DNA of 64,000 nucleotides from assembly GCF_988243305.1 (NCBI RefSeq), contig NZ_OZ547136.1; one strand, written 5' to 3'. Shown here piece after piece: positions 1 to 39,476 of this stretch. A program made the position numbers and the translations under genes. The notes under the pieces were generated by a model, which was given only the letters and a program-made list of their open reading frames with translations, ran no database searches and was not told the DNA's origin. Each line of letters begins with the position of its first letter. Position 1 is the stretch's first letter.

Positions 1-509
1 AGCGGGTTTTCTCGCTGATGATCATCAGTAACCAGTTCAATGCTATCGCCGTGCTCTTCGCGCCACTCATCGTAGGAGAAGAGCTGGCTGTTATTGGTGT
101 CGAGCAACATTTGGCGATAATCGGCAATATCGATCCCTAAACGTTCCGCTACCTCAGTTTCCGTGGCGTTACGGCCAAGTTCCTGCTCCAGTTGCCCTAT
201 TGCCTGTGCCACTTCACGCGCGTTGCGTCGCACGCTGCGCGGCACCCAGTCACGGCTGCGAAGTTCATCCAGCATAGCGCCACGTATACGCTGCACTGCG
301 TAAGTTGTAAATGCCGTTCCTTGTAGGGCGTCATAGCGTTCGACGGCATTAAGTAACCCAATGCCGCCCGCCTGTAGCAGATCGTCAAGTTCCACGCTCG
401 CGGGCAGTCGAACCTGCAGGCGCAATGCTTCGTGACGCACCAGCGGGACATAACGCTGCCACAGCGAGTGTTTATCCATTACACCTTCAGCGGTATAGAG
501 TGAATTCAC
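1..509 (-). CDS. fliA: RNA polymerase sigma-28 factor FliA, N-terminal part (3' end lies beyond the window start); GTG start at 509
   Basis: Minus-strand translation reads V/MNSLYTAEGVMDKHSLWQRYVPLVRHEALRLQVRLPASVELDDLLQAGGIGLLNAVERYDALQGTAFTTYAVQRIRGAMLDELRSRDWVPRSV..., recognised as FliA; absent from the ORF track because it has no in-window stop. Confidence 0.85.
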   Translation of the reverse strand, partial: MNSLYTAEGVMDKHSLWQRYVPLVRHEALRLQVRLPASVELDDLLQAGGIGLLNAVERYDALQGTAFTTYAVQRIRGAMLDELRSRDWVPRSVRRNAREVAQAIGQLEQELGRNATETEVAERLGIDIADYRQMLLDTNNSQLFSYDEWREEHGDSIELVTDDHQRENP

Positions 510-631
510 GATAAACAGCCCTGCGTTATATGAGTTATCGGCATGATTATCCGTTTCTGCAGGGTTTTTAATCGGACGATTAGTGGGTGAAATGAGGGGT
601 TATTTGGGGGTTACCGGTAAATTGCGGACAG

Positions 632-657
632 AAAAAACCCCGCCGTTGGCGGGGTTT
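632..657 (-). terminator. Rho-independent terminator downstream of fliC
   Basis: GC hairpin ccccgccgttggcgggg (638-654) followed on the minus strand by a U-run (A-run 632-637 on plus), just 3' of the fliC stop. Confidence 0.7.
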
Positions 658-673
658 GAGCGATAAGTGTAAA

Positions 674-2134
674 TTAACGCAGCAGAGACAGTACGTTCTG
701 CGTGGTCTGGTTAGCCTGCGCCAGAACAGAGGTACCCGCTTGTTGCAGGATCTGCGCACGAGACATGTTAGACACTTCGGTCGCGTAGTCAGCATCTTCG
801 ATACGGCTACGGGCAGAAGACAGGTTGTTTACGGTGTTGCCAAGGTTGGTGATAGCAGAGTCGAAACGGTTTTGTACTGCACCGAGGTCAGAACGCAGAT
901 TGTCAACTTTAGCCAATGCCTTGTCGATGGTTTCGAGCGGGTTGGTAGTAGATTGCAACGATTTTGCTGCATCTTCTTTTACCAGAATCGGGCTACCACC
1001 TTCTGATTTGCTCAGATACATAGTTTTGCCAAGCCCAGTTACTGTCTTACCATCAGCGCTAACTTCATAATCAGCGCCATTTACAACTAAAGAACTACCC
1101 ACTTTTTTAGCGTTATTTAAGTCCAGATCCGATGCTGTAGCGGCTTTGTTTTCAACCTTAGTTGTAGTGAACTGACCTGCACTATTTTTGTAAACAGGAT
1201 CAGACGTTTTTAATGTTGCGTCCTTCCCTGTCGCATCAATAGTAAAGGTTACATCTTTGCCATCAATATTAGCGGTTAGAGTGCCGTTACCACTGCCATC
1301 AAATGCATCAGTGCCTTTGTTGGTGAAAGTAATACCTTGGTATTTAATTGAGGCATCTTTAGCTAAAGAAACTGCGGCTTTTGCAAGCCCAGTCGCATCA
1401 ATACCTGTACCACCGACTTTTGTATCACTCTTAGTAGTCAGAGAACCATCGGTAGCGCTAACAAAAATTGCGTCACCATCCTCATTTTGAACTGCTCCAC
1501 TATCTACATTAACAGTATAGTTATCAGTACCGTTAATTTGATAATTATCAGTACCTGTCGCTTTAAATTTAGAAATCAGGTCACTGCCAGTTGCTTTCTG
1601 CGCGCCATCGATATTAAAGCCGTCCAGGCCGAGAGTTTTCGCATCAATTTTTGCCAGATTGATAGTGATGGTTTCCCCATCATTAGCACCAACCTGAATT
1701 TTCATTTCATTATTTTCGGCAAGGACTTTCACGCCGTTAAACTGAGTTTGCTCAGATACACGGTCAATTTCTTCCAGACGTTGAGTAATTTCTGCCTGAA
1801 TAGAAGAAAGATCGCTGTCAGAGTTAGTACCGTTAGTTGCCTGAACAGTCAGTTCACGTACACGCTGCAGGTTGTTGTTAATTTCATTCAGCGCACCTTC
1901 AGTAGTCTGCGCAACAGAAATACCATCATTCGCGTTACGGGAAGCCTGAGTCAGACCTTTAATATTTGCCGTAAAACGGTTAGCAATCGCCTGACCTGCT
2001 GCGTCATCTTTAGCACTGTTAATACGCAGGCCAGAAGAGAGACGCTCAATAGCAGAGCTAAGAGAAGACTGAGATTTGTTCAGGTTATTCTGGGTCAACA
2101 GCGACAGGCTGTTTGTATTAATGACTTGTGCCAT
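674..2134 (-). CDS. fliC: Flagellin, 486 aa
   Basis: Conserved flagellin N-terminus MAQVINTNSLSLLTQNNLNKSQSSLSSAIERLSSGLRINSAKDDAAGQAIANRFT and C-terminus ...TTQNVLSLLR, with a variable central domain. Confidence 0.95.
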   Translation of the reverse strand: MAQVINTNSLSLLTQNNLNKSQSSLSSAIERLSSGLRINSAKDDAAGQAIANRFTANIKGLTQASRNANDGISVAQTTEGALNEINNNLQRVRELTVQATNGTNSDSDLSSIQAEITQRLEEIDRVSEQTQFNGVKVLAENNEMKIQVGANDGETITINLAKIDAKTLGLDGFNIDGAQKATGSDLISKFKATGTDNYQINGTDNYTVNVDSGAVQNEDGDAIFVSATDGSLTTKSDTKVGGTGIDATGLAKAAVSLAKDASIKYQGITFTNKGTDAFDGSGNGTLTANIDGKDVTFTIDATGKDATLKTSDPVYKNSAGQFTTTKVENKAATASDLDLNNAKKVGSSLVVNGADYEVSADGKTVTGLGKTMYLSKSEGGSPILVKEDAAKSLQSTTNPLETIDKALAKVDNLRSDLGAVQNRFDSAITNLGNTVNNLSSARSRIEDADYATEVSNMSRAQILQQAGTSVLAQANQTTQNVLSLLR

Positions 2135-2203
2135 GATCTTTTCCTTATCAATTACAACTTGATGTTATTGGGCTGTTGCCCACGGTTTCTCACCGTACCC
2201 CTT

Positions 2204-2230
2204 GTATCGGCACCTGAATTTCGAACTTTA
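2204..2230 (-). promoter_or_regulatory. Sigma-28 (class 3) promoter of fliC
   Basis: On the minus strand TAAAGTTC, 11-nt spacer, GCCGATAC, close to the TAAAGTTT-N11-GCCGATAA consensus, upstream of the fliC start. Confidence 0.65.
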
Positions 2231-2323
2231 GAAAATTTTAGTTTCTCTCCTGTTTTTTCTTAACGGCTGAAATATCCGTAATATACAACTCTACTCTGCG
2301 CATCATCTTCGTGAATCAACTAT

Positions 2324-2350
2324 TAAACTTTGCGCACAAATTGCCGATAA
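2324..2350 (+). promoter_or_regulatory. Sigma-28 (class 3) promoter of fliD
   Basis: TAAACTTT, 11-nt spacer, GCCGATAA, about 40 nt upstream of the fliD ATG. Confidence 0.7.
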
Positions 2351-2388
2351 CCCGCTTATCTACTGTTTGCAATCAAAAGGAATTAGGT

Positions 2389-3801
2389 ATGGCTTCATTT
2401 ACATCTCTTGGCGTTGGTTCGAATCTGCCGCTGGATACATTGCTAAACAACCTGACCATCGCTGAAAAAAAACGCTTAAACCCAATTACTCAGCAACAGA
2501 GTGACAACACCGCACGTCTGACAGCCTATGGCACATTAAAAAGTGCATTAGAAAAATTCCAGACTGCAAATACTGCGTTAAATAAAGCCGATCTGTTCAA
2601 AAGCACTACCGTTACCAGTAGCAATGAAGACCTTAAAGTTTCCACCGAAGCAGGTGCTGCCCCCGGTATCTATACCATCAGCGTAACCCAACTGGCGCAG
2701 GCGCAATCTTTACGAACTGATTCCCCGACAATCATTGCATCAACAAAAGATGCACTGGGTGATGAGTCATCAGATACACGCACAATAAAAATTACCCAAG
2801 ACGGCCGTAAAGAGCCGCTGGAAATCAAGCTCAATAAAGATCAGACGTCATTGGATGAGATCAGCAAAACCATTAACGATGCCGATAGTGGAATTTCCGC
2901 TAGTATCGTTAAAGTCAAAGATGGTGACTATCAATTGGTATTGACCGCCAGTGAAGGTCTGGCCAATAAAATGACCATATCTGTTGAGGGTGACAGTAAA
3001 TTAAATGATCTGCTGGCTTATGACAGCAAGACCAACACCGGGAATATGAAGGAACTGGTTAACGCGCAAAATGCACAGCTAAACGTTAACGGTATCGATA
3101 TTGAACGTTCAAGTAACAAAATTACCGATGCTCCTCAGGGAGTGACTCTCGATTTGACCAAAAAAGTCACTGACGTCCGGGTCACGGTGACAAAAAGCAA
3201 CGATAAAGCAACCGAAGCAATTAAAGGCTGGGTGGATTCATATAACTCCCTCATTGACACCTTTAACACCCTGACAAAATATAAAGAAGTAGACCCAGGT
3301 GCTGAAGCACAAGATAAAAATAATGGTGCACTTCTCGGAGACAGCGTTGTACGTACAATTCAAAGCGGCATCCGCGCACAATTTGCAAACGGTGCCAGCG
3401 ACGGTGCCTTCAAAACATTAAACGAGATCGGGATTAAGCAGGACGGCACGACGGGTAAGCTGAAAATTGATGATGATAAACTCAAAAAAGTCCTGAATGA
3501 AAATACAGCATCCGTACGTGAATTGCTGGTAGGCGATGGTAAAGAAACAGGAATTACCACCAAAATTGCCACCGAGGTAAAAGGTTACCTTGCCGATGAT
3601 GGCATTATTGATAGCGCACAGGACAGTATTAACGCCACACTGAAAAAACTAACCAAACAGTATCTATCCGTCAGTGCCAGCATTGATGACACCGTGGCGC
3701 GTTACACTGCACAGTTTACGCAATTAGATACCATGATGAGCAAACTGAATAACACCAGTACCTATCTCAGCCAACAATTTACTGCAATGAGTAATTCCTG
3801 A
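2389..3801 (+). CDS. fliD: Flagellar filament capping protein FliD
   Basis: ATG at 2389 gives MASFTSLGVGSNLPLDTLL...; size and position after fliC match FliD; the track ORF from 2311 is an upstream extension. Confidence 0.9.
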   Translation: MASFTSLGVGSNLPLDTLLNNLTIAEKKRLNPITQQQSDNTARLTAYGTLKSALEKFQTANTALNKADLFKSTTVTSSNEDLKVSTEAGAAPGIYTISVTQLAQAQSLRTDSPTIIASTKDALGDESSDTRTIKITQDGRKEPLEIKLNKDQTSLDEISKTINDADSGISASIVKVKDGDYQLVLTASEGLANKMTISVEGDSKLNDLLAYDSKTNTGNMKELVNAQNAQLNVNGIDIERSSNKITDAPQGVTLDLTKKVTDVRVTVTKSNDKATEAIKGWVDSYNSLIDTFNTLTKYKEVDPGAEAQDKNNGALLGDSVVRTIQSGIRAQFANGASDGAFKTLNEIGIKQDGTTGKLKIDDDKLKKVLNENTASVRELLVGDGKETGITTKIATEVKGYLADDGIIDSAQDSINATLKKLTKQYLSVSASIDDTVARYTAQFTQLDTMMSKLNNTSTYLSQQFTAMSNS

Positions 3802-3815
3802 TCACGGAGGTCAGC

Positions 3816-4226
3816 ATGTATACCGCGAGCGGCTCAAAAGCCTATGCACAAATTGGCGTCGAAAGCGCCGTAATGAGCGCCAGCCAGCAGCAGCTGGTCA
3901 CCATGCTATTTGATGGAGTGCTGAGCGCACTGGTTAGAGCGCGCCTGTTTATGCAGGACAACAATCAGCAAGGCAAAGGCGTCTCTTTGTCAAAAGCGAT
4001 CAACATCATTGAGAACGGACTGCGGGTGAGTCTTGATGAAGAGAGCAAAGACGAATTAACCCAAAACTTGATTGCTCTTTATAGCTATATGGTCAGGCGC
4101 TTGCTGCAAGCCAATTTACGCAACGATGTCTCCGCAGTCGAAGAAGTGGAAGCATTAATGCGTAATATTGCCGATGCCTGGAAAGAGTCGTTACTCTCCC
4201 CTTCTTTGATTCAGGACCCAGTCTGA
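3816..4226 (+). CDS. fliS: Flagellin-specific chaperone FliS
   Basis: 136 aa [34 protein letters not shown]...; fliDST operon position. Confidence 0.92.
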
Positions 4227-4591
4227 TGAACCATGCACCGCATTTGTATTTCGCCTGGCAACAACTCGTCGAAAAAAGCCAGCTCATGTTACGCCTGGCA
4301 ACGGAAGAACAATGGGAAGAACTCATCGCCAGCGAAATGGCGTATGTGAATGCGGTGCAGGAGATTGCACATCTGACTGAAGAGATTGACCCGTCCACCA
4401 CGATGCAGGAGCAGCTCCGCCCGATGCTGCGCCTGATTCTCGACAACGAAAGCAAGGTAAAGCAGTTATTACAGATTCGGATGGATGAACTGGCGAAACT
4501 GGTCGGTCAGTCATCGGTGCAAAAATCGGTGTTAAGTGCCTATGGCGATCAGGGCGGCTTTGTGCTGGCTCCGCAGGATAACCTCTTTTGA
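4226..4591 (+). CDS. fliT: Flagellar chaperone and anti-FlhDC factor FliT
   Basis: 121 aa [33 protein letters not shown]...; start overlaps the fliS stop. Confidence 0.9.
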
Positions 4592-4668
4592 ATCTGAACG
4601 AGTCGATGGCTCGCGAATAATCCGATTACGGCTACGCTTCTAATGTTCCCCTTGAATGGAGTCGAAGA

Positions 4669-6156
4669 ATGCGTAATCCCACGCTGTTACAATGTTTTCA
4701 CTGGTATTACCCGGAAGGCGGTAAGCTCTGGCCTGAACTGGCCGAGCGCGCCGACGGTTTTAATGATATTGGTATCAATATGGTCTGGTTGCCGCCCGCC
4801 TATAAAGGCGCATCGGGCGGGTATTCGGTCGGCTACGACTCCTATGATTTATTTGATTTAGGCGAGTTTGATCAGAAAGGCAGCATCCCTACTAAATATG
4901 GCGATAAAGCACAACTGCTGGCCGCCATTGACGCTCTGAAACGTAATGACATTGCGGTGCTGTTGGACGTGGTAGTCAACCACAAAATGGGCGCGGATGA
5001 AAAAGAAGCTATTCGCGTGCAGCGTGTAAATGCTGATGACCGTACGCAAATTGACGAAGAAATCATAGAGTGCAAAGGCTGGACGCGTTACACCTTCCCC
5101 GCCCGTGCCGGGCAATACTCGCAGTTTATCTGGGATTTCAAATGTTTTAGCGGTATCGACCATATCGAAAACCCTGATGAAGATGGCATTTTTAAAATTG
5201 TTAACGACTACACCGGTGAAGGCTGGAACGATCAGGTTGATGATGAACTCGGTAATTTCGATTATCTGATGGGTGAGAATATCGATTTCCGCAATCATGC
5301 CGTGACGGAAGAGATTAAATACTGGGCGCGCTGGGTGATGGAACAAACACAATGCGACGGTTTTCGTCTTGATGCGGTCAAACATATTCCGGCGTGGTTT
5401 TATAAAGAGTGGATCGAACACGTACAGGAAGTTGCGCCAAAGCCGCTGTTTATTGTGGCGGAGTACTGGTCGCATGAAGTCGATAAACTGCAAACGTATA
5501 TTGATCAGGTGGAAGGCAAAACCATGCTGTTCGATGCGCCGCTGCAGATGAAATTCCATGAAGCATCGCGCATGGGGCGCGACTACGACATGACGCAGAT
5601 TTTCACGGGTACATTAGTGGAAGCCGATCCTTTCCACGCCGTGACGCTCGTTGCCAATCACGACACCCAACCGTTGCAAGCCCTCGAAGCGCCGGTCGAA
5701 CCGTGGTTTAAACCGCTGGCGTATGCCTTAATTTTGTTGCGGGAAAATGGCGTTCCTTCGGTATTCTATCCGGACCTCTACGGTGCGCATTACGAAGATG
5801 TCGGTGGTGACGGGCAAACCTATCCGATAGATATGCCAATAATCGAACAGCTTGATGAGTTAATTCTCGCCCGTCAGCGTTTCGCCCACGGTGTACAGAC
5901 GTTATTTTTCGACCATCCGAACTGCATTGCCTTTAGTCGCAGTGGCACTGACGAATATCCCGGCTGCGTGGTGGTCATGTCGAACGGGGATGATGGCGAA
6001 AAAACCATTCATCTGGGAGAGAATTACGGCAATAAAACCTGGCGTGATTTTCTGGGGAATCGGCAAGAGAGCGTAGTGACCGACGAAAACGGCGAAGCGA
6101 CCTTCTTTTGCAACGGCGGCAGCGTCAGCGTGTGGGTTATCGAAGAGGTGATTTAA
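4669..6156 (+). CDS. amyA: Cytoplasmic alpha-amylase
   Basis: 495 aa GH13-type sequence (…[14 protein letters not shown]…[11 protein letters not shown]…) in the conserved position after fliT. Confidence 0.9.
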
Positions 6157-6159
6157 ATT

Positions 6160-6188
6160 CATCCCCGGCGGCAAGCCGGGGAGATTTC
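6160..6188. terminator. Hairpin between convergent amyA and yedD, probable bidirectional terminator
   Basis: Inverted repeat ccccggc-ggcaa-gccgggg immediately after the amyA stop and before the yedD stop. Confidence 0.5.
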
Positions 6189-6189
6189 A

Positions 6190-6606
6190 TTACGGCAGTG
6201 GCGTCGGTAACGGCGCTTTATCCAGCGCGGCGGCACACTCTGCCGTCGGGCGATCCACACGCTCCATCGTCATACCATCGTACTCAATGGTGTTACCGTC
6301 ACGCTCAACCTCGTACAGCTCACGTTTTACGGTAACGTTAGTGAGATCATCAGACATCAATGTCAACTTGCCCGGCACGGCAATCACCCGCTGCCACTGA
6401 CGGCAATCCAGGGTATCGCCCTCTTTAGTGACAATCAGGCTGCCTATCGCTTCCGGACTGACCAGCGCACGTTGCGGCCCTTTGGTCTGCCAGTAGCCCG
6501 CCAGCCAGTCCGGCGCGGGGGTTTTCACGACATTGTTATAGTTTTCGACTTCGGCACAGCCCGCCAGCAACATGAGCGCGCCTGCAATTGCGAGTTTTTT
6601 CATCAT
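6190..6606 (-). CDS. yedD: Lipoprotein YedD
   Basis: Lipoprotein signal peptide with lipobox MMKKLAIAGALMLLAGC; 138 aa. Confidence 0.85.
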   Translation of the reverse strand: MMKKLAIAGALMLLAGCAEVENYNNVVKTPAPDWLAGYWQTKGPQRALVSPEAIGSLIVTKEGDTLDCRQWQRVIAVPGKLTLMSDDLTNVTVKRELYEVERDGNTIEYDGMTMERVDRPTAECAAALDKAPLPTPLP

Positions 6607-6789
6607 TCGTCCTGCATGAGAAGAAAAGAGGATTGTGGCATTAAAGCCCTGATGTCGCCAGCCTTTCCAGGTTCAGAGAGAAATTTGATCTAACTATTAT
6701 TTTTGTGAATTATTACCCCGAAAATAAATTTGCATGATGTATGATTCGCGATTCTTGTTTCAAACCTTCTGAGTTCAGAGGCTACATTC

Positions 6790-7995
6790 ATGTCATGGCA
6801 GCAATTCAAACACGCCTGGTTGATTAAATTCTGGGCACCCATCCCTGCGGTCATCGCGGCGGGTATTCTCTCCACTTACTATTTTGGCATTACTGGCACC
6901 TTTTGGGCTGTCACGGGTGAATTTACCCGTTGGGGCGGTCAGCTCCTGCAGCTGTTTGGCGTCCATGCTGAAGAGTGGGGTTATTTTAAAATTATCCATC
7001 TGGAAGGATCGCCATTAACCCGCATCGACGGGATGATGATCCTCGGCATGTTTGGCGGCTGCTTTGCCGCAGCGCTGTGGGCCAACAATGTCAAACTGCG
7101 CATGCCGCGCAGCCGTATCCGCATTATGCAGGCCATTATTGGCGGCATTATCGCCGGTTTTGGCGCGCGTCTGGCAATGGGCTGTAACCTGGCGGCGTTC
7201 TTTACCGGCATTCCTCAGTTCTCGCTGCATGCCTGGTTCTTTGCCATCGCCACTGCCATTGGTTCATGGTTTGGCGCGCGCTTTACCCTGCTGCCCATCT
7301 TCCGTATTCCCGTGAAAATGCAGAAAGTTTCTGCCGCCTCACCGCTGACGCAAAAACCGGATCAGGCGCGGCGTCGTTTTCGTCTCGGGATGCTGGTCTT
7401 TTTCGGCATGCTGGGCTGGGCGCTGCTCACGGCGATGAACCAACCCAAACTGGGGCTGGCAATGCTGTTTGGCGTCGGCTTTGGTTTACTGATTGAACGT
7501 GCGCAAATCTGCTTTACTTCGGCGTTCCGCGATATGTGGATCACCGGACGTACCCATATGGCGAAAGCAATCATTATCGGTATGGCGGTGAGTGCCATCG
7601 GGATCTTCAGTTACGTACAGTTAGGCGTTGAACCCAAAATCATGTGGGCGGGACCAAACGCGGTAATTGGTGGTTTACTGTTTGGTTTTGGCATCGTGCT
7701 GGCAGGCGGCTGCGAAACCGGCTGGATGTACCGCGCGGTAGAAGGCCAGGTGCACTACTGGTGGGTCGGTCTGGGCAATGTGATCGGCTCGACGATTCTG
7801 GCGTATTACTGGGATGATTTCGCTCCGGCGCTGGCCACCGACTGGGACAAAATCAACTTGCTGAAAACCTTTGGCCCGATGGGTGGCCTGCTGGTGACAT
7901 ATTTGCTGTTGTTTACTGCGCTGATGTTGATTATCGGCTGGGAAAAACGCTTCTTCCGCCGTGCGGCACCGCAGACTGCTAAGGAGATCGCATGA
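6790..7995 (+). CDS. yedE: YedE/YeeE family inner-membrane transporter-like protein (sulfur/selenium related)
   Basis: 401-aa polytopic membrane protein, translationally coupled to downstream yedF. Confidence 0.85.
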   Translation: MSWQQFKHAWLIKFWAPIPAVIAAGILSTYYFGITGTFWAVTGEFTRWGGQLLQLFGVHAEEWGYFKIIHLEGSPLTRIDGMMILGMFGGCFAAALWANNVKLRMPRSRIRIMQAIIGGIIAGFGARLAMGCNLAAFFTGIPQFSLHAWFFAIATAIGSWFGARFTLLPIFRIPVKMQKVSAASPLTQKPDQARRRFRLGMLVFFGMLGWALLTAMNQPKLGLAMLFGVGFGLLIERAQICFTSAFRDMWITGRTHMAKAIIIGMAVSAIGIFSYVQLGVEPKIMWAGPNAVIGGLLFGFGIVLAGGCETGWMYRAVEGQVHYWWVGLGNVIGSTILAYYWDDFAPALATDWDKINLLKTFGPMGGLLVTYLLLFTALMLIIGWEKRFFRRAAPQTAKEIA

Positions 7996-8225
7996 AAAAT
8001 ATCGTTCCTGATTACCGCCTTGATATGGTGGGTGAACCCTGCCCTTATCCGGCAGTCGCAACTCTTGAGGCGATGCCGCAGTTAAAAAAAGGGGAAATCC
8101 TGGAAGTGGTGAGCGACTGTCCACAGTCGATCAATAATATTCCACTGGATGCGCGTAATCACGGCTATACGGTGCTGGATATTCAGCAAGACGGGCCGAC
8201 CATTCGTTATTTAATTCAGAAGTAA
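7992..8225 (+). CDS. yedF: TusA-like sulfurtransferase family protein YedF
   Basis: 77 aa containing the CPYP motif (VGEPCPYPAVATLEAM); overlaps the yedE stop. Confidence 0.85.
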   Translation: MKNIVPDYRLDMVGEPCPYPAVATLEAMPQLKKGEILEVVSDCPQSINNIPLDARNHGYTVLDIQQDGPTIRYLIQK

Positions 8226-8331
8226 TCCCTCATTCCCGCTGTGGCCCACAGCGGGAACATCGTTGCCTCTGACACATAGATTTTACCCGCCCCCTCTCCT
8301 ATTCTTTTCAGTATGATCTCAGGAGGTTTCT

Positions 8332-9000
8332 ATGTGTGGACGCTTTGCCCAATCCCAAACGCGTGAAGATTACCTTGCGCTTCTCGCGGAAGATATTGAA
8401 CGCGATATTCCCTACGATCCCGAACCCATTGGCAGATACAACGTCGCGCCGGGAACCAAAGTTCTTCTGCTCAGTGAACGTGATGAACACCTTCATCTGG
8501 ATCCGGTTTTCTGGGGATATGCTCCCGGATGGTGGGATAAACCGCCGCTGATTAACGCCCGCGTAGAAACTGCGGCCACCAGTCGTATGTTTAAACCGCT
8601 CTGGCAACATGGTCGGGCAATCTGTTTTGCCGATGGCTGGTTTGAGTGGAAAAAAGAAGGCGACAAAAAACAGCCTTATTTTATCTATCGCGCTGATGGA
8701 CAACCTGTTTTTATGGCCGCGATAGGTAGCACACCGTTTGAGCGCGGTGACGAAGCCGAAGGATTTTTAATTGTCACTGCAGCAGCAGACCAGGGTCTGG
8801 TAGATATTCATGACCGCCGCCCGCTGGTTCTGTCGCCAGAAGCTGCACAGGAATGGATGCGGCAAGAGATTGGCGGTAAAGAAGCATCAGAAATTGCTAC
8901 CAACGGCTGTGTGCCAGCAAACCAGTTCACCTGGCACCCGGTATCGCGCGCGGTGGGTAATATCAAAAACCAGGGAGCGGAGTTAATTCAACCGGTTTGA
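8332..9000 (+). CDS. yedK: SOS-response associated peptidase (SRAP) YedK, abasic-site processing protein
   Basis: 222 aa starting MCGRFAQ with the catalytic Cys2, a SRAP/HMCES hallmark. Confidence 0.9.
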   Translation: MCGRFAQSQTREDYLALLAEDIERDIPYDPEPIGRYNVAPGTKVLLLSERDEHLHLDPVFWGYAPGWWDKPPLINARVETAATSRMFKPLWQHGRAICFADGWFEWKKEGDKKQPYFIYRADGQPVFMAAIGSTPFERGDEAEGFLIVTAAADQGLVDIHDRRPLVLSPEAAQEWMRQEIGGKEASEIATNGCVPANQFTWHPVSRAVGNIKNQGAELIQPV

Positions 9001-9393
9001 TAAGCCAGGAGACTATTGATCAATAATACTGCGTCATAAGAAATCTCTATTAGACAAAGTAGACGCTCCTTCCACATGCGCCACAAGAAACCTCTATTCC
9101 AGTGACACAATTACGCCTGATTATTTCCCTAGCCCGGAATATGAATAAAAACATCAACAAAGATTAAATTATTCAAACGTTACTGTTGCGTCTGCGGTCG
9201 TAGCAACATTCGACGTGGTGATGAGTGTTAAAAGAGACACTCTGATGTTCAGAGGGGTTATCGCGTTTACGGATCGTGGATGGCAGAAAACTTTCAGGAT
9301 CAGGTATCCATTTTAAACCAGAAATTGAGTGAGTTTGCCCCATCCATGCCCCAAGCGGTGAGATTGGAAGTAATTAACAACAGGTTACAAAAC

Positions 9394-9708
9394 CTACACC
9401 TGCATGGACATCACTTCCTGATACGCCGCCACCAGCTTATTACGCACCTGAATCCCCATTTGCATAGAAACTGAGGCTTTTTGCATATCGGTCATCACAT
9501 CGTTTAACGCCACGCCGGGTTCACCGAGGGTGAATTTTTCTGCCTGCGTGCGGGCAGCTGTTTGTGTATCGCTAATGCGATCGAGCGCGGCGTGCAGCTG
9601 CCCGGCAAAACTAATGGTCGGTTGCGGCAGTGAATCCTGCGCACGCGCACTCATCGCCGTAGCCTGTAACTGGCTGATAACCCCTTCAATCCCCTGTATC
9701 GCTGACAT
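9394..9708 (-). CDS. fliE: Flagellar hook-basal body protein FliE
   Basis: 104 aa from the internal [27 protein letters not shown]...; divergent from fliF. Confidence 0.9.
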
Positions 9709-29774: not shown

Positions 29775-29829
29775 ACGCGCTCCGTTGCCAAAGAGTCGCC
29801 ACCTTAGCAGTTTTTATTCATAGCGTCTG

Positions 29830-30198
29830 CTACGTGCGGGACGAGGTCGGGTGTACCAGGCAATGCTGCCTAACAATGCCCCGACCAGAGCCATAAATAA
29901 AAATCCGACCAGTGCCCCTAACCACTTTCCCGCGGTAGAGCCTAAATCGCTTTTCAAATCCCGACACCGGGGCATCAGGGATCCGGCTCATCACCCAGAT
30001 GTAACGCGCCATTGCCCAGACGAAATAGCCACACCATGTATAGAAAGCCCACAAAGCCAATTTGCCGCCAGGGCTGCGAGAGAGTCTCTCTTCCATCTTT
30101 GTCGAACCGTATTCCATTTTGAGATAACCCGGAAAATTCAGACATAGTACTATTATGTGATAAAAGTCACATTTTTCCACATTGGATGAGCCAGTCAA
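29830..30198 (-). CDS. yedR: Putative inner-membrane protein YedR (start uncertain; an internal ATG at 30117 is possible)
   Basis: 122-aa ORF with the hydrophobic segment KLALWAFYTWCGYFVWAMARYIWV, in the yedR position between yedJ and the porin. Confidence 0.6.
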   Translation of the reverse strand: MTGSSNVEKCDFYHIIVLCLNFPGYLKMEYGSTKMEERLSRSPGGKLALWAFYTWCGYFVWAMARYIWVMSRIPDAPVSGFEKRFRLYRGKVVRGTGRIFIYGSGRGIVRQHCLVHPTSSRT

Positions 30199-30745: not shown

Positions 30746-31933
30746 ATGAAAAGAAAAGTTCTGGCAATGCTGGTCCCGGCGTTATTAGTTGCTGGCGCAG
30801 CAAATGCGGCTGAAGTCTATAATAAAGATGGTAATAAACTGGATTTGTACGGAAAAGTAGCGGGCCTGCACTACTTCTCTGATGATGCTGGCAGCGATGG
30901 CGACATGTCATATGCCCGTATCGGTTTCAAAGGTGAAACTCAGATCGCTGACCAATTCACTGGTTATGGTCAGTGGGAATTTAACATTGGCGCAAACGGT
31001 CCTGAAAGCGACAAAGGTAATACCGCAACGCGTCTGGCATTTGCAGGTTTAGGCTTTGGTCAGAATGGTACTTTCGACTATGGTCGTAACTACGGTGTCG
31101 TATATGACATCGAAGCATGGACCGATATGCTGCCAGAATTTGGTGGCGATACCTATGCTGGTGCCGACAACTTCATGAACGGTCGTGCTAATGGTGTTGC
31201 AACCTACCGTAACAATGGCTTCTTTGGTCAGGTCGATGGCCTGAACTTTGCTCTGCAATATCAGGGTAATAATGAAGATGATGGATTATTCGGTCAGGAA
31301 GGTTCTGGTAACGGTAATGGCCGTAAGTTAGCTAAAGAGAACGGCGACGGCTTCGGTATGTCCACTTCCTATGACTTTGACTTTGGTTTAAGTCTGGGCG
31401 CTGCTTACTCTAACTCTGACCGTACCGACAATCAGGTTCACAAAGGTACTCATAACACTCGTTATGGAGATCGCTTCGATGCAACTGCTGGCGGTGAAAC
31501 AGCAGAAGCATGGACCGTTGGTGCTAAATACGACGCTAATAACGTTTACTTAGCAGCTATGTATGCTGAAACCCGTAACATGACTGGTTACGGTGATGCT
31601 GATGCGATCGCTAACAAAACCCAAAACTTTGAAGTTGTTGCTCAGTATCAGTTCGACTTCGGTCTGCGCCCGTCCATCGCTTACCTGCAATCTAAAGGTA
31701 AGGATTTAGGCGGTGTAAATAGTGATAACTTCGACAGCCAGGGCAATCATCATTACACCAACAAAGATCTGGTTAAATATGTTGATATTGGTATGACCTA
31801 CTACTTCAACAAAAACATTTCCACCTACGTTGATTACAAAATCAACCTGCTGGACAACGACGACGACTTCTACAAAGAAAACGGCATCGCTACCGATGAT
31901 ATCGTAGCTGTGGGCTTAGTCTACCAGTTCTAA
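30746..31933 (+). CDS. OmpC/OmpF-family general porin, apparently intact (yedS-like)
   Basis: Signal peptide [21 protein letters not shown], then [16 protein letters not shown] and C-terminal ...VAVGLVYQF, hallmarks of enterobacterial 16-strand porins; the track ORF starts 30 nt upstream. Confidence 0.9.
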
Positions 31934-38066: not shown

Positions 38067-38717
38067 TTGGCGATTCGTCTTCATAAACTGGCTGTTGCTT
38101 TAGGTGTCTTTATTGTTAGCGCTCCTGCCTTTTCGCATGGTCATCATTCTCATGGCAAACCCTTAACAGAGGTCGAACAAAAAGCTGCTAATGGTGTTTT
38201 TGATGATACCAATGTACAAAACCGAACGCTCAGTGACTGGGATGGAGTCTGGCAATCCGTTTACCCTTTACTGCAAAGTGGCAAACTTGATCCCGTCTTT
38301 CAGAAGAAAGCGGATGCAGATAAAACCAAAACATTTGCTGAAATTAAAGATTATTATCGCAAAGGTTATGCGACAGATATCGAAATGATTGGCATTGAGG
38401 ACGGCATTGTCGAATTCCATAGAAATAATGAAACAACATCCTGTAAATATGATTACGATGGATACAAAATACTCACCTATAAATCAGGCAAGAAAGGCGT
38501 TCGTTACTTATTCGAATGTAAAGATCCTGAAAGCAAAGCCCCTAAATATATACAATTTAGCGATCATATAATTGCACCACGAAAATCATCTCATTTTCAC
38601 ATTTTTATGGGTAATGATACCCAACAGTCTTTATTGAATGAAATGGAAAACTGGCCAACGTATTATCCCTATCAGTTGAGTAGCGAAGAAGTGGTCGAGG
38701 AGATGATGTCTCATTGA
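38067..38717 (+). CDS. zinT: Periplasmic zinc/cadmium-binding protein ZinT (YodA); TTG start
   Basis: 216 aa [47 protein letters not shown]... with His-rich metal-binding N-terminus. Confidence 0.92.
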
Positions 38718-38805
38718 TTTTTTTGCGCTGACTTCAGTTATTTAACAGAACAGTGCCTGGTAGTAACAACAATAATTTACCAAGACAAATAAGTAAGACA
38801 AACTC

Positions 38806-38838
38806 AGACACGCTCATACTTGAGTCGTGTCTTTTTTA
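38806..38838 (+). terminator. Rho-independent terminator downstream of zinT
   Basis: Hairpin gacacg...cgtgtc followed by TTTTTTATT. Confidence 0.55.
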
Positions 38839-39386
38839 TTATGTCTGTAGAAAAAAACTGCGAAAAAGGCGAACAATAAATACACAACTCAGCCATACAG
38901 ACTAGCAGCGCAAATGTTTCCAGGAGCAAGTCATCTGTCATGGTAAAACTAACCATAAATATAGGTTAATTTTGATGTTTAAACCTTTTTTACTTGTTAG
39001 TATGATACAAAGGCTTTCAAAAAAGCTGGGAAATTCAACAACTCTTGGAAATTATGGACTTTGTCCCGCAGCTTTAATCTGACGGCCGCGTTCCTTTTTT
39101 GGCTCAATTATTGACCCCTTCTCTACGCAACTTCAGTTCCCGCCAGCAACTTTGCGGCAGTTTCATAGGATCAATGTCTAAAAGAATAATGGTGACCGAT
39201 AAGAAAACGACTGAATAACTGTAGATTTTCGCTCGAAACCTTCCTGTCAGACCCATAGCGAATCAAGTGCTGAATGTCACAGTATCGAACAGAAAACAGT
39301 GACGATCTAACCCTTCAAGAATATTCTACGAATGTTCTGTTTAGGAAAAGCAAGGCGGGAAGTCGAGAGATAAGTCATTGATAAAG

Positions 39387-39476
39387 TGGCGGAGAGAGGG
39401 GGATTTGAACCCCCGGTAGAGTTGCCCCTACTCCGGTTTTCGAGACCGGTCCGTTCAGCCGCTCCGGCATCTCTCC
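39387..39476 (-). tRNA. serU: tRNA-Ser (anticodon CGA)
   Basis: Minus-strand GGAGAGATGCCGGAGCGGCTGAACGGACCGGTCTCGAAAACCGG...GGGGGTTCAAATCCCCCTCTCTCCGCCA with long variable arm and CGA in the anticodon loop. Confidence 0.9.

Follow-up and report, generated by a model that had tools for sequence, protein, structure and literature searches.

The open reading frame on the minus strand at positions 674 to 2134 of the window, that is, of the whole 64,000-nucleotide stretch of DNA that was analysed, is almost certainly fliC, the flagellin structural gene of Escherichia coli, and represents the known H27 allele; no observation speaks against this identification. Both the gene and its H27 form are already known, and the allele supplies the H component of the serotype, H27, a type found in clinically relevant lineages that include Stx-producing EAEC O86:H27 as well as ETEC O166:H27 and O128:H27. 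Taken with the near identity of all 64 kb to the genome of JE86-ST05, the H27 allele assigns the window to an H27 background within phylogroup B1. Apart from its use in typing, the H27 fliC adds nothing new on the working of flagellin; a first-pass annotation, made from the letters of the sequence, had anticipated no mechanistic novelty, and none was found in the protein.

The fliC gene and its protein domains

The reading frame starts with ATG, contains no internal stop codon, and specifies exactly 486 amino acids, as read from the list of open reading frames and the translation. Its earlier identification as a flagellin is borne out by the presence of both terminal flagellin domains and by the curated family model. 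In Pfam, Flagellin_N (PF00669) corresponds to residues 5-142 (E 1.6e-45) and Flagellin_C (PF00700) to residues 400-485 (E 1.2e-31) of the 486-residue frame, the whole profile being covered in each case, and the NCBIfam FliC/FljB model NF005294 scores the protein at 533.5 bits against a curated cutoff of 387. Within the centre of the protein, residues 288-384 match the FliC-like_3rd beta-sheet domain (PF22370; E 3.1e-12). The gene and its parts are as follows.

674 to 2134, minus strand: fliC coding sequence, allele H27, 486 amino acids plus stop (list of open reading frames, Pfam, NCBIfam, and identity over 1461 nt)
1610 to 2134, minus strand: N-terminal conserved helical part (D0/D1 N-arm), codons 1-175 (Pfam and identity to other alleles)
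935 to 1609, minus strand: hypervariable central region (outer domains D2/D3), codons 176-400 (allele comparison and alignment to 3v47)
674 to 934, minus strand: C-terminal conserved helical part (D1/D0 C-arm), codons 401-486 plus stop (Pfam and identity)

Cysteine, tryptophan, and histidine are all missing from the translated protein. The N-terminal part includes the sequence LQRVRELTVQA, which we take to be the stretch recognised by TLR5 in Salmonella FliC. The GC content is 41.5% in the central region of the gene versus 52% in the C-terminal part. The description of the central region as rich in threonine, glycine, and aspartate is accurate for those three amino acids (13.3%, 11.6%, and 10.2% of residues 176-400, respectively) but incomplete, as alanine (11.1%) and lysine (9.8%) are equally enriched.

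Assignment to H27

The gene is assigned to fliC-H27 because it is 100% identical to the fliC of H27-labelled strains and the next types reach at most 75% nucleotide identity in the centre. All 1461 of 1461 nucleotides are shared with O128:H27 strain 90-9281, with the O86:H27 isolates JE86-ST02 and JE86-ST05, and with ETEC E7476, a genome record that was assumed to represent strain E7476A. A full-length match at 100% nucleotide identity is present in at least 20 complete E. coli genomes, and the encoded flagellin has the protein accession WP_000079825.1. The serotype labels of such genomes are mostly predicted from the fliC sequence itself, and only the label of E7476A is likely to reflect independent serology. 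JE86-ST02 and JE86-ST05 are Stx-producing EAEC O86:H27 of phylogroup B1 that were typed from their fliC sequence (PMC7366661), E7476A is listed as O166:H27 with citation of the original 1989 strain description (PMC5149512), and E195 is listed as an H27 reference strain (PMC3578835).

The central region is the discriminating part of the gene. Just 33 of 5426 complete genomes match positions 935-1597 of the window at 95% nucleotide identity or more, and the next-best identities over the same interval are those of an H8-like allele (75%), H8 (73.7%), H21 (72.3%), and H11 (70.8%). Between the proteins, identity over residues 176-400 is 70-74% to H8, H11, H21, and the H8-like allele, with several small indels. 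The flanking residues 1-175 are 98.9-100% identical to those of H8, H11, and H21 and 85% identical to those of the K-12 H48 flagellin, and residues 401-486 are 100% identical to those of H8, H11, and H21; the termini of the H8-like allele also fall in the range of 98.9-100%. Judged by these alignments, the type-specific information lies wholly within residues 176-400. The first-pass annotation had proposed that the central region sets the H serotype and could help to type the strain, and both proposals hold up: differences from the nearest types are confined to residues 176-400, and there is a single clear match among typed strains, H27. The comparison of the central region with H-type alleles that it had suggested as a check was run against serotype-labelled complete genomes and returned H27 only.

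There is a negligible chance that the gene represents a new or mosaic H type and not H27. Recombination of the central region is common in the H8/H11/H21/H27 group, and a 490-residue variant that differs by an ASSA insertion and four substitutions exists in four genomes, both of which would make a novel type conceivable; yet the full-length identity extends to at least 20 complete genomes, H27-labelled ones included, and comparison with these identical genomes shows no mosaic breakpoint. A new or mosaic type was therefore rejected on the grounds of that identity, and the gene is treated below as fliC-H27.

Two related alleles can be described separately. The variant H27 allele of 490 amino acids has 98.8% nucleotide identity and occurs in 4 genomes, its carriers including E. 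coli MS 16-3 (301-1773 of its extracted locus), LR778152, and LR778146. It gains ASSA behind residue 299 through a 12-nt insertion, and its four substitutions (D276G, K309T, K386N, and T396A) likewise fall in the central region. The H8-like allele is 90.5% identical to H8 in the central region at the nucleotide level and is carried by genomes that include USDA-ARS-USMARC-51688 and NCTC9041; no serotype-labelled genome with this allele is among the matches listed, and we presume that the allele may be H40.

Length of the protein

The flagellin had been described as shorter than several common H types and as having a short central domain. The lengths of the flagellins compared are given below.

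H27 flagellin, fliC of the window: 486 aa
H11 flagellin: 487 aa
H21 flagellin: 491 aa
H8 flagellin and H8-like allele: 492 aa
Salmonella FliC: 494-495 aa
K-12 H48 flagellin: 498 aa
EPEC H6 flagellin, PDB 7SN7 / 7SQJ: 546 / 548 aa
EHEC H7 flagellin, PDB 7SN4: 585 aa

The protein is indeed shorter than the H7 and H6 flagellins, but the gap is only 1-12 aa relative to H11, H21, H8, and H48. The central domain cannot be called short, since its approximately 225 amino acids align end to end with the D2/D3 domains of Salmonella Dublin FliC and are not truncated. In size, the H27 FliC is thus typical both of its allele family and of the canonical class of Salmonella and K-12 flagellins.

Relation to Salmonella and sheath-forming flagellins

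In a PDB sequence search, residues 1-486 of the H27 FliC are colinear with residues 1-495 of the Salmonella FliC structures (E of approximately 1e-125 to 1e-126), the structures matched over the full length being 1UCU, 3A5X, and 9GNZ. When the central 225 amino acids are searched alone, they align with residues 136-378 of Salmonella Dublin FliC (3v47) at an E-value of 8e-23, and no other match is obtained from the PDB at E <= 0.01. At the same threshold, and by sequence comparison only, the outer domains of the H7 (7SN4), H6 (7SN7), and Achromobacter (7SQD) flagellins have no match to the H27 centre. An AlphaFold (AF2) model of the protein, built with 7 near-identical sequences, is globally poor (pLDDT 60, pTM 0.38), with mean pLDDT values per 10-residue block of 72-89 over most of residues 181-370. 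Its best Foldseek match is 3V47 (E 8.8e-23), at a TM score of only 0.30-0.43 that is low because the global model is poor, and for the same reason the evidence on the fold rests mainly on sequence homology. On that homology, residues 176-400 are predicted to form the D2/D3 beta domains of Salmonella-type FliC.

The D0-D1-D2-D3 layout of Salmonella enterica FliC is also that of the H27 FliC, whose centre can be aligned with Dublin FliC from end to end, although the two proteins come from different species and represent different antigens, with a central identity of approximately 50% in the Foldseek alignment. The phase-variation partner fljB/hin of Salmonella was not seen in the 64-kb E. coli window. 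The flagellins of EHEC H7 (7SN4) and EPEC H6 (7SN7) have the conserved D0/D1 core in common with H27 but are 60-100 aa longer.

The outer domains of the H7 and H6 flagellins dimerise to form a sheath, and roles of this kind exist for the outer domains of some flagellins (PMC8931119), so the H27 central domain could in principle do more than present an antigenic surface and act enzymatically, in adhesion, or as a sheath-forming dimer. This is very improbable. The only Pfam match in the H27 centre is the FliC-like beta-sheet domain, the centre matches Salmonella Dublin FliC alone and not the sheath-forming H7, H6, and Achromobacter flagellins at E <= 0.01, and the Salmonella and K-12 H48 filaments are termed 'canonical', those of K-12 being without an outer domain sheath (PMC8931119).

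The flagellar locus and its transcription signals

The genes and signals that surround fliC are listed below.

1 to 509, minus strand: fliA (sigma-28), 5′ part with a GTG start, running off the start of the window (annotation of identical DNA in JE86-ST05 and 90-9281)
632 to 673, minus strand: short fliC 3′UTR with a predicted intrinsic terminator (terminator scan)
2204 to 2230, minus strand: predicted sigma-28 (FliA) class-3 promoter of fliC, TAAAGTTC-N11-GCCGATAC (consensus match)
2324 to 2350, plus strand: predicted sigma-28 promoter of the divergent fliDST, TAAACTTT-N11-GCCGATAA (1 mismatch to the consensus)
2389 to 3801, plus strand: fliD, filament cap (Pfam FliD_N/FliD_C and annotation of identical DNA)
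3816 to 4226, plus strand: fliS, flagellin export chaperone (Pfam FliS and annotation of identical DNA)
4226 to 4591, plus strand: fliT (Pfam FliT and annotation of identical DNA)

Downstream of fliC and on the same strand lies fliA, and upstream, in divergent orientation, lie fliD, fliS, and fliT, which are followed by amyA, yedD, yedE, yedF, and the fliE-fliR operons. The order fliA / fliC / fliD-S-T is the standard enterobacterial arrangement, and every fli gene of the window is intact (fliC, the part of fliA that is inside, fliDST, and fliE-R). A tblastn search with the conserved flagellin termini found fliC alone in the 64-kb window, and a second flagellin or phase-variation locus in the window was accordingly rejected.

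Searching the whole 64 kb with the sigma-28 consensus TAAAGTTT-N11-GCCGATAA yields 2 matches versus 0.42 expected by chance, both of which are located in the fliC-fliD intergenic region, one for each gene; the fliC match is approximately 70 nt upstream of the ATG. A scan for sigma-70 promoters gave 3 sites versus 3.4 in shuffled sequence, and the lack of any excess is as expected for a sigma-28 gene. At the other end of the gene, the predicted terminator hairpin begins 17 nt past the fliC stop codon and consists of a 10-bp GC-rich stem (657..635) followed by a run of T. The hairpin folds at -16.3 kcal/mol (z -3.4), and an Rfam scan of positions 1..5000 at E <= 1 returned only two sub-threshold chance matches, both on the terminator hairpin, with no match to a curated RNA family.

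A short 3′UTR and the FliX RNA

The 3′UTR of the H27 gene measures approximately 42 nt from the stop codon to the end of the terminator (window 632-673). The K-12 gene (H48, 498 aa, b1923) resembles it in locus, promoter type, and terminator hairpin and differs from it in the central region, where the proteins are 21% identical, and in the 3′UTR, which is approximately 156 nt longer in K-12. In an alignment with the K-12 locus (2913-3107), the segment missing from the window comprises two REP elements and the stretch with the FliX seed.

FliX is a sigma-28-dependent sRNA of K-12 that represses fliC and the mRNAs for S10-operon ribosomal proteins; in the RefSeq annotation it is a 195-nt RNA from the fliC 3′UTR (b4827). 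Both FliX and the approximately 100-nt FliX-S lower fliC mRNA, the expression of S10-operon reporters, and the number of flagella, and the position of the seed AATTTGTCAGCAACGTGCTT just 5′ of the terminator was taken from the fliX-M1 primer SM644 (PMC10578931). The seed has no match with 3 or fewer mismatches anywhere in the 64-kb window, and it is absent from the window in the 3′UTR alignment.

The H8, H11, H21, and H8-like alleles that were sampled occupy the same locus and have the same short 3′UTR. Of 5426 complete E. coli genomes, 816 (~15%) have the short junction, and 3504 have the K-12-type segment with the FliX seed. At 99% identity or more, the junction is present in 33 genomes, and the same number of genomes carry the H27 centre at 95% or more. 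The H8, H11, H21, H27, and H8-like alleles have near-identical termini, and the variable block together with the short 3′UTR was probably exchanged among them by recombination. These sequence comparisons raise the possibility, which we consider tentative and rather doubtful, that a considerable share of E. coli is without the negative feedback of FliX on flagellar synthesis, or has another short 3′UTR RNA in its place. If this were true, post-transcriptional control of the flagellar regulon would vary together with the family of the H antigen.

Expression, export, and assembly

From what is established for FliC, the H27 gene would belong to class 3 and depend on a FliA (sigma-28) promoter for its transcription, and the unfolded monomer would be held by FliS, leave the cell by way of the flagellar type III apparatus, and polymerise beneath the FliD cap. 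The conserved termini of FliC carry the export signal and the FliS-binding C-terminus. The helices formed by residues ~1-175 and 401-486 would build the filament core (D0/D1), including the TLR5-recognised surface, and residues 176-400 would form the surface-exposed D2/D3 domains that constitute the H27 antigen. These roles of the H27 FliC in the filament, in export, and as an antigen are those expected from its membership of the flagellin family.

The source strain does not necessarily express fliC, because near-identical JE86 isolates have been reported as non-motile. The gene could be intact but silent, in which case the strain would be non-motile or its H antigen would derive from another flagellin locus outside the window; some E. 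coli possess other flagellin loci, namely flkA, fllA, and flmA. This explanation gains some weight from the almost identical isolates JE86-ST02 and JE86-ST05, which are non-motile and were typed from the fliC sequence only (PMC7366661), but on the whole it is unlikely. The fliC gene, its sigma-28 match, fliDST, fliE-R, and as much of fliA as the window contains are intact, a second flagellin is absent from the 64 kb, and H27 is the listed type of E7476A, whose allele is the same (PMC5149512). Non-motility in the laboratory is a frequent finding that can usually be traced to the regulation of flhDC, which is located outside the window. If the source strain is non-motile like the JE86 isolates, the cause is not in the window.

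Strain context and neighbouring features

The window is colinear with positions 2415371-2479370 of the JE86-ST05 chromosome (NZ_AP022815.1), from which it differs by 23 substitutions and 0 indels in 64 kb, and its first 8 kb are 100.0% identical to the JE86 isolates. The fliC gene and its flanks are identical in JE86-ST05, whereas FliH, FliO, FliR, and RcsA each differ by 1 aa. JE86-ST05 is a Stx2a-producing EAEC O86:H27, and it is among the JE86 isolates reported to be non-motile (PMC7366661).

Several differences from K-12 are found elsewhere in the window. The gap between yedK and fliE (window 9000-9394) holds only a 123-nt integrase remnant (9238-9360), and the window is approximately 2 kb shorter here than K-12, which has yedL, the yedN pseudogene, and intG of the cryptic prophage PR-G. 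The position of yedS, a pseudogene in K-12, is occupied by an intact porin of 395 aa (30746-31933) that is named 'OmpC' in RefSeq and is probably an intact YedS orthologue and not the true ompC. As it is annotated in JE86-ST05, drpB (29814-30096) is frameshifted, and the translated span contains two internal stops. Between zinT and tRNA-Ser (38717-39387), where K-12 has yodB (cytochrome b561), JE86-ST05 has no annotated gene; the gap may reflect either a deletion or a gene missed by the annotation. From 40468 to the end of the window at 64000, and adjoining tRNA-Asn (asnT), lies a yersiniabactin High Pathogenicity Island with an integrase, ybtS/X/Q/P/A, irp2, and irp1, called from the annotation of the near-identical JE86-ST05 sequence; in K-12 this position is taken by yeeJ.
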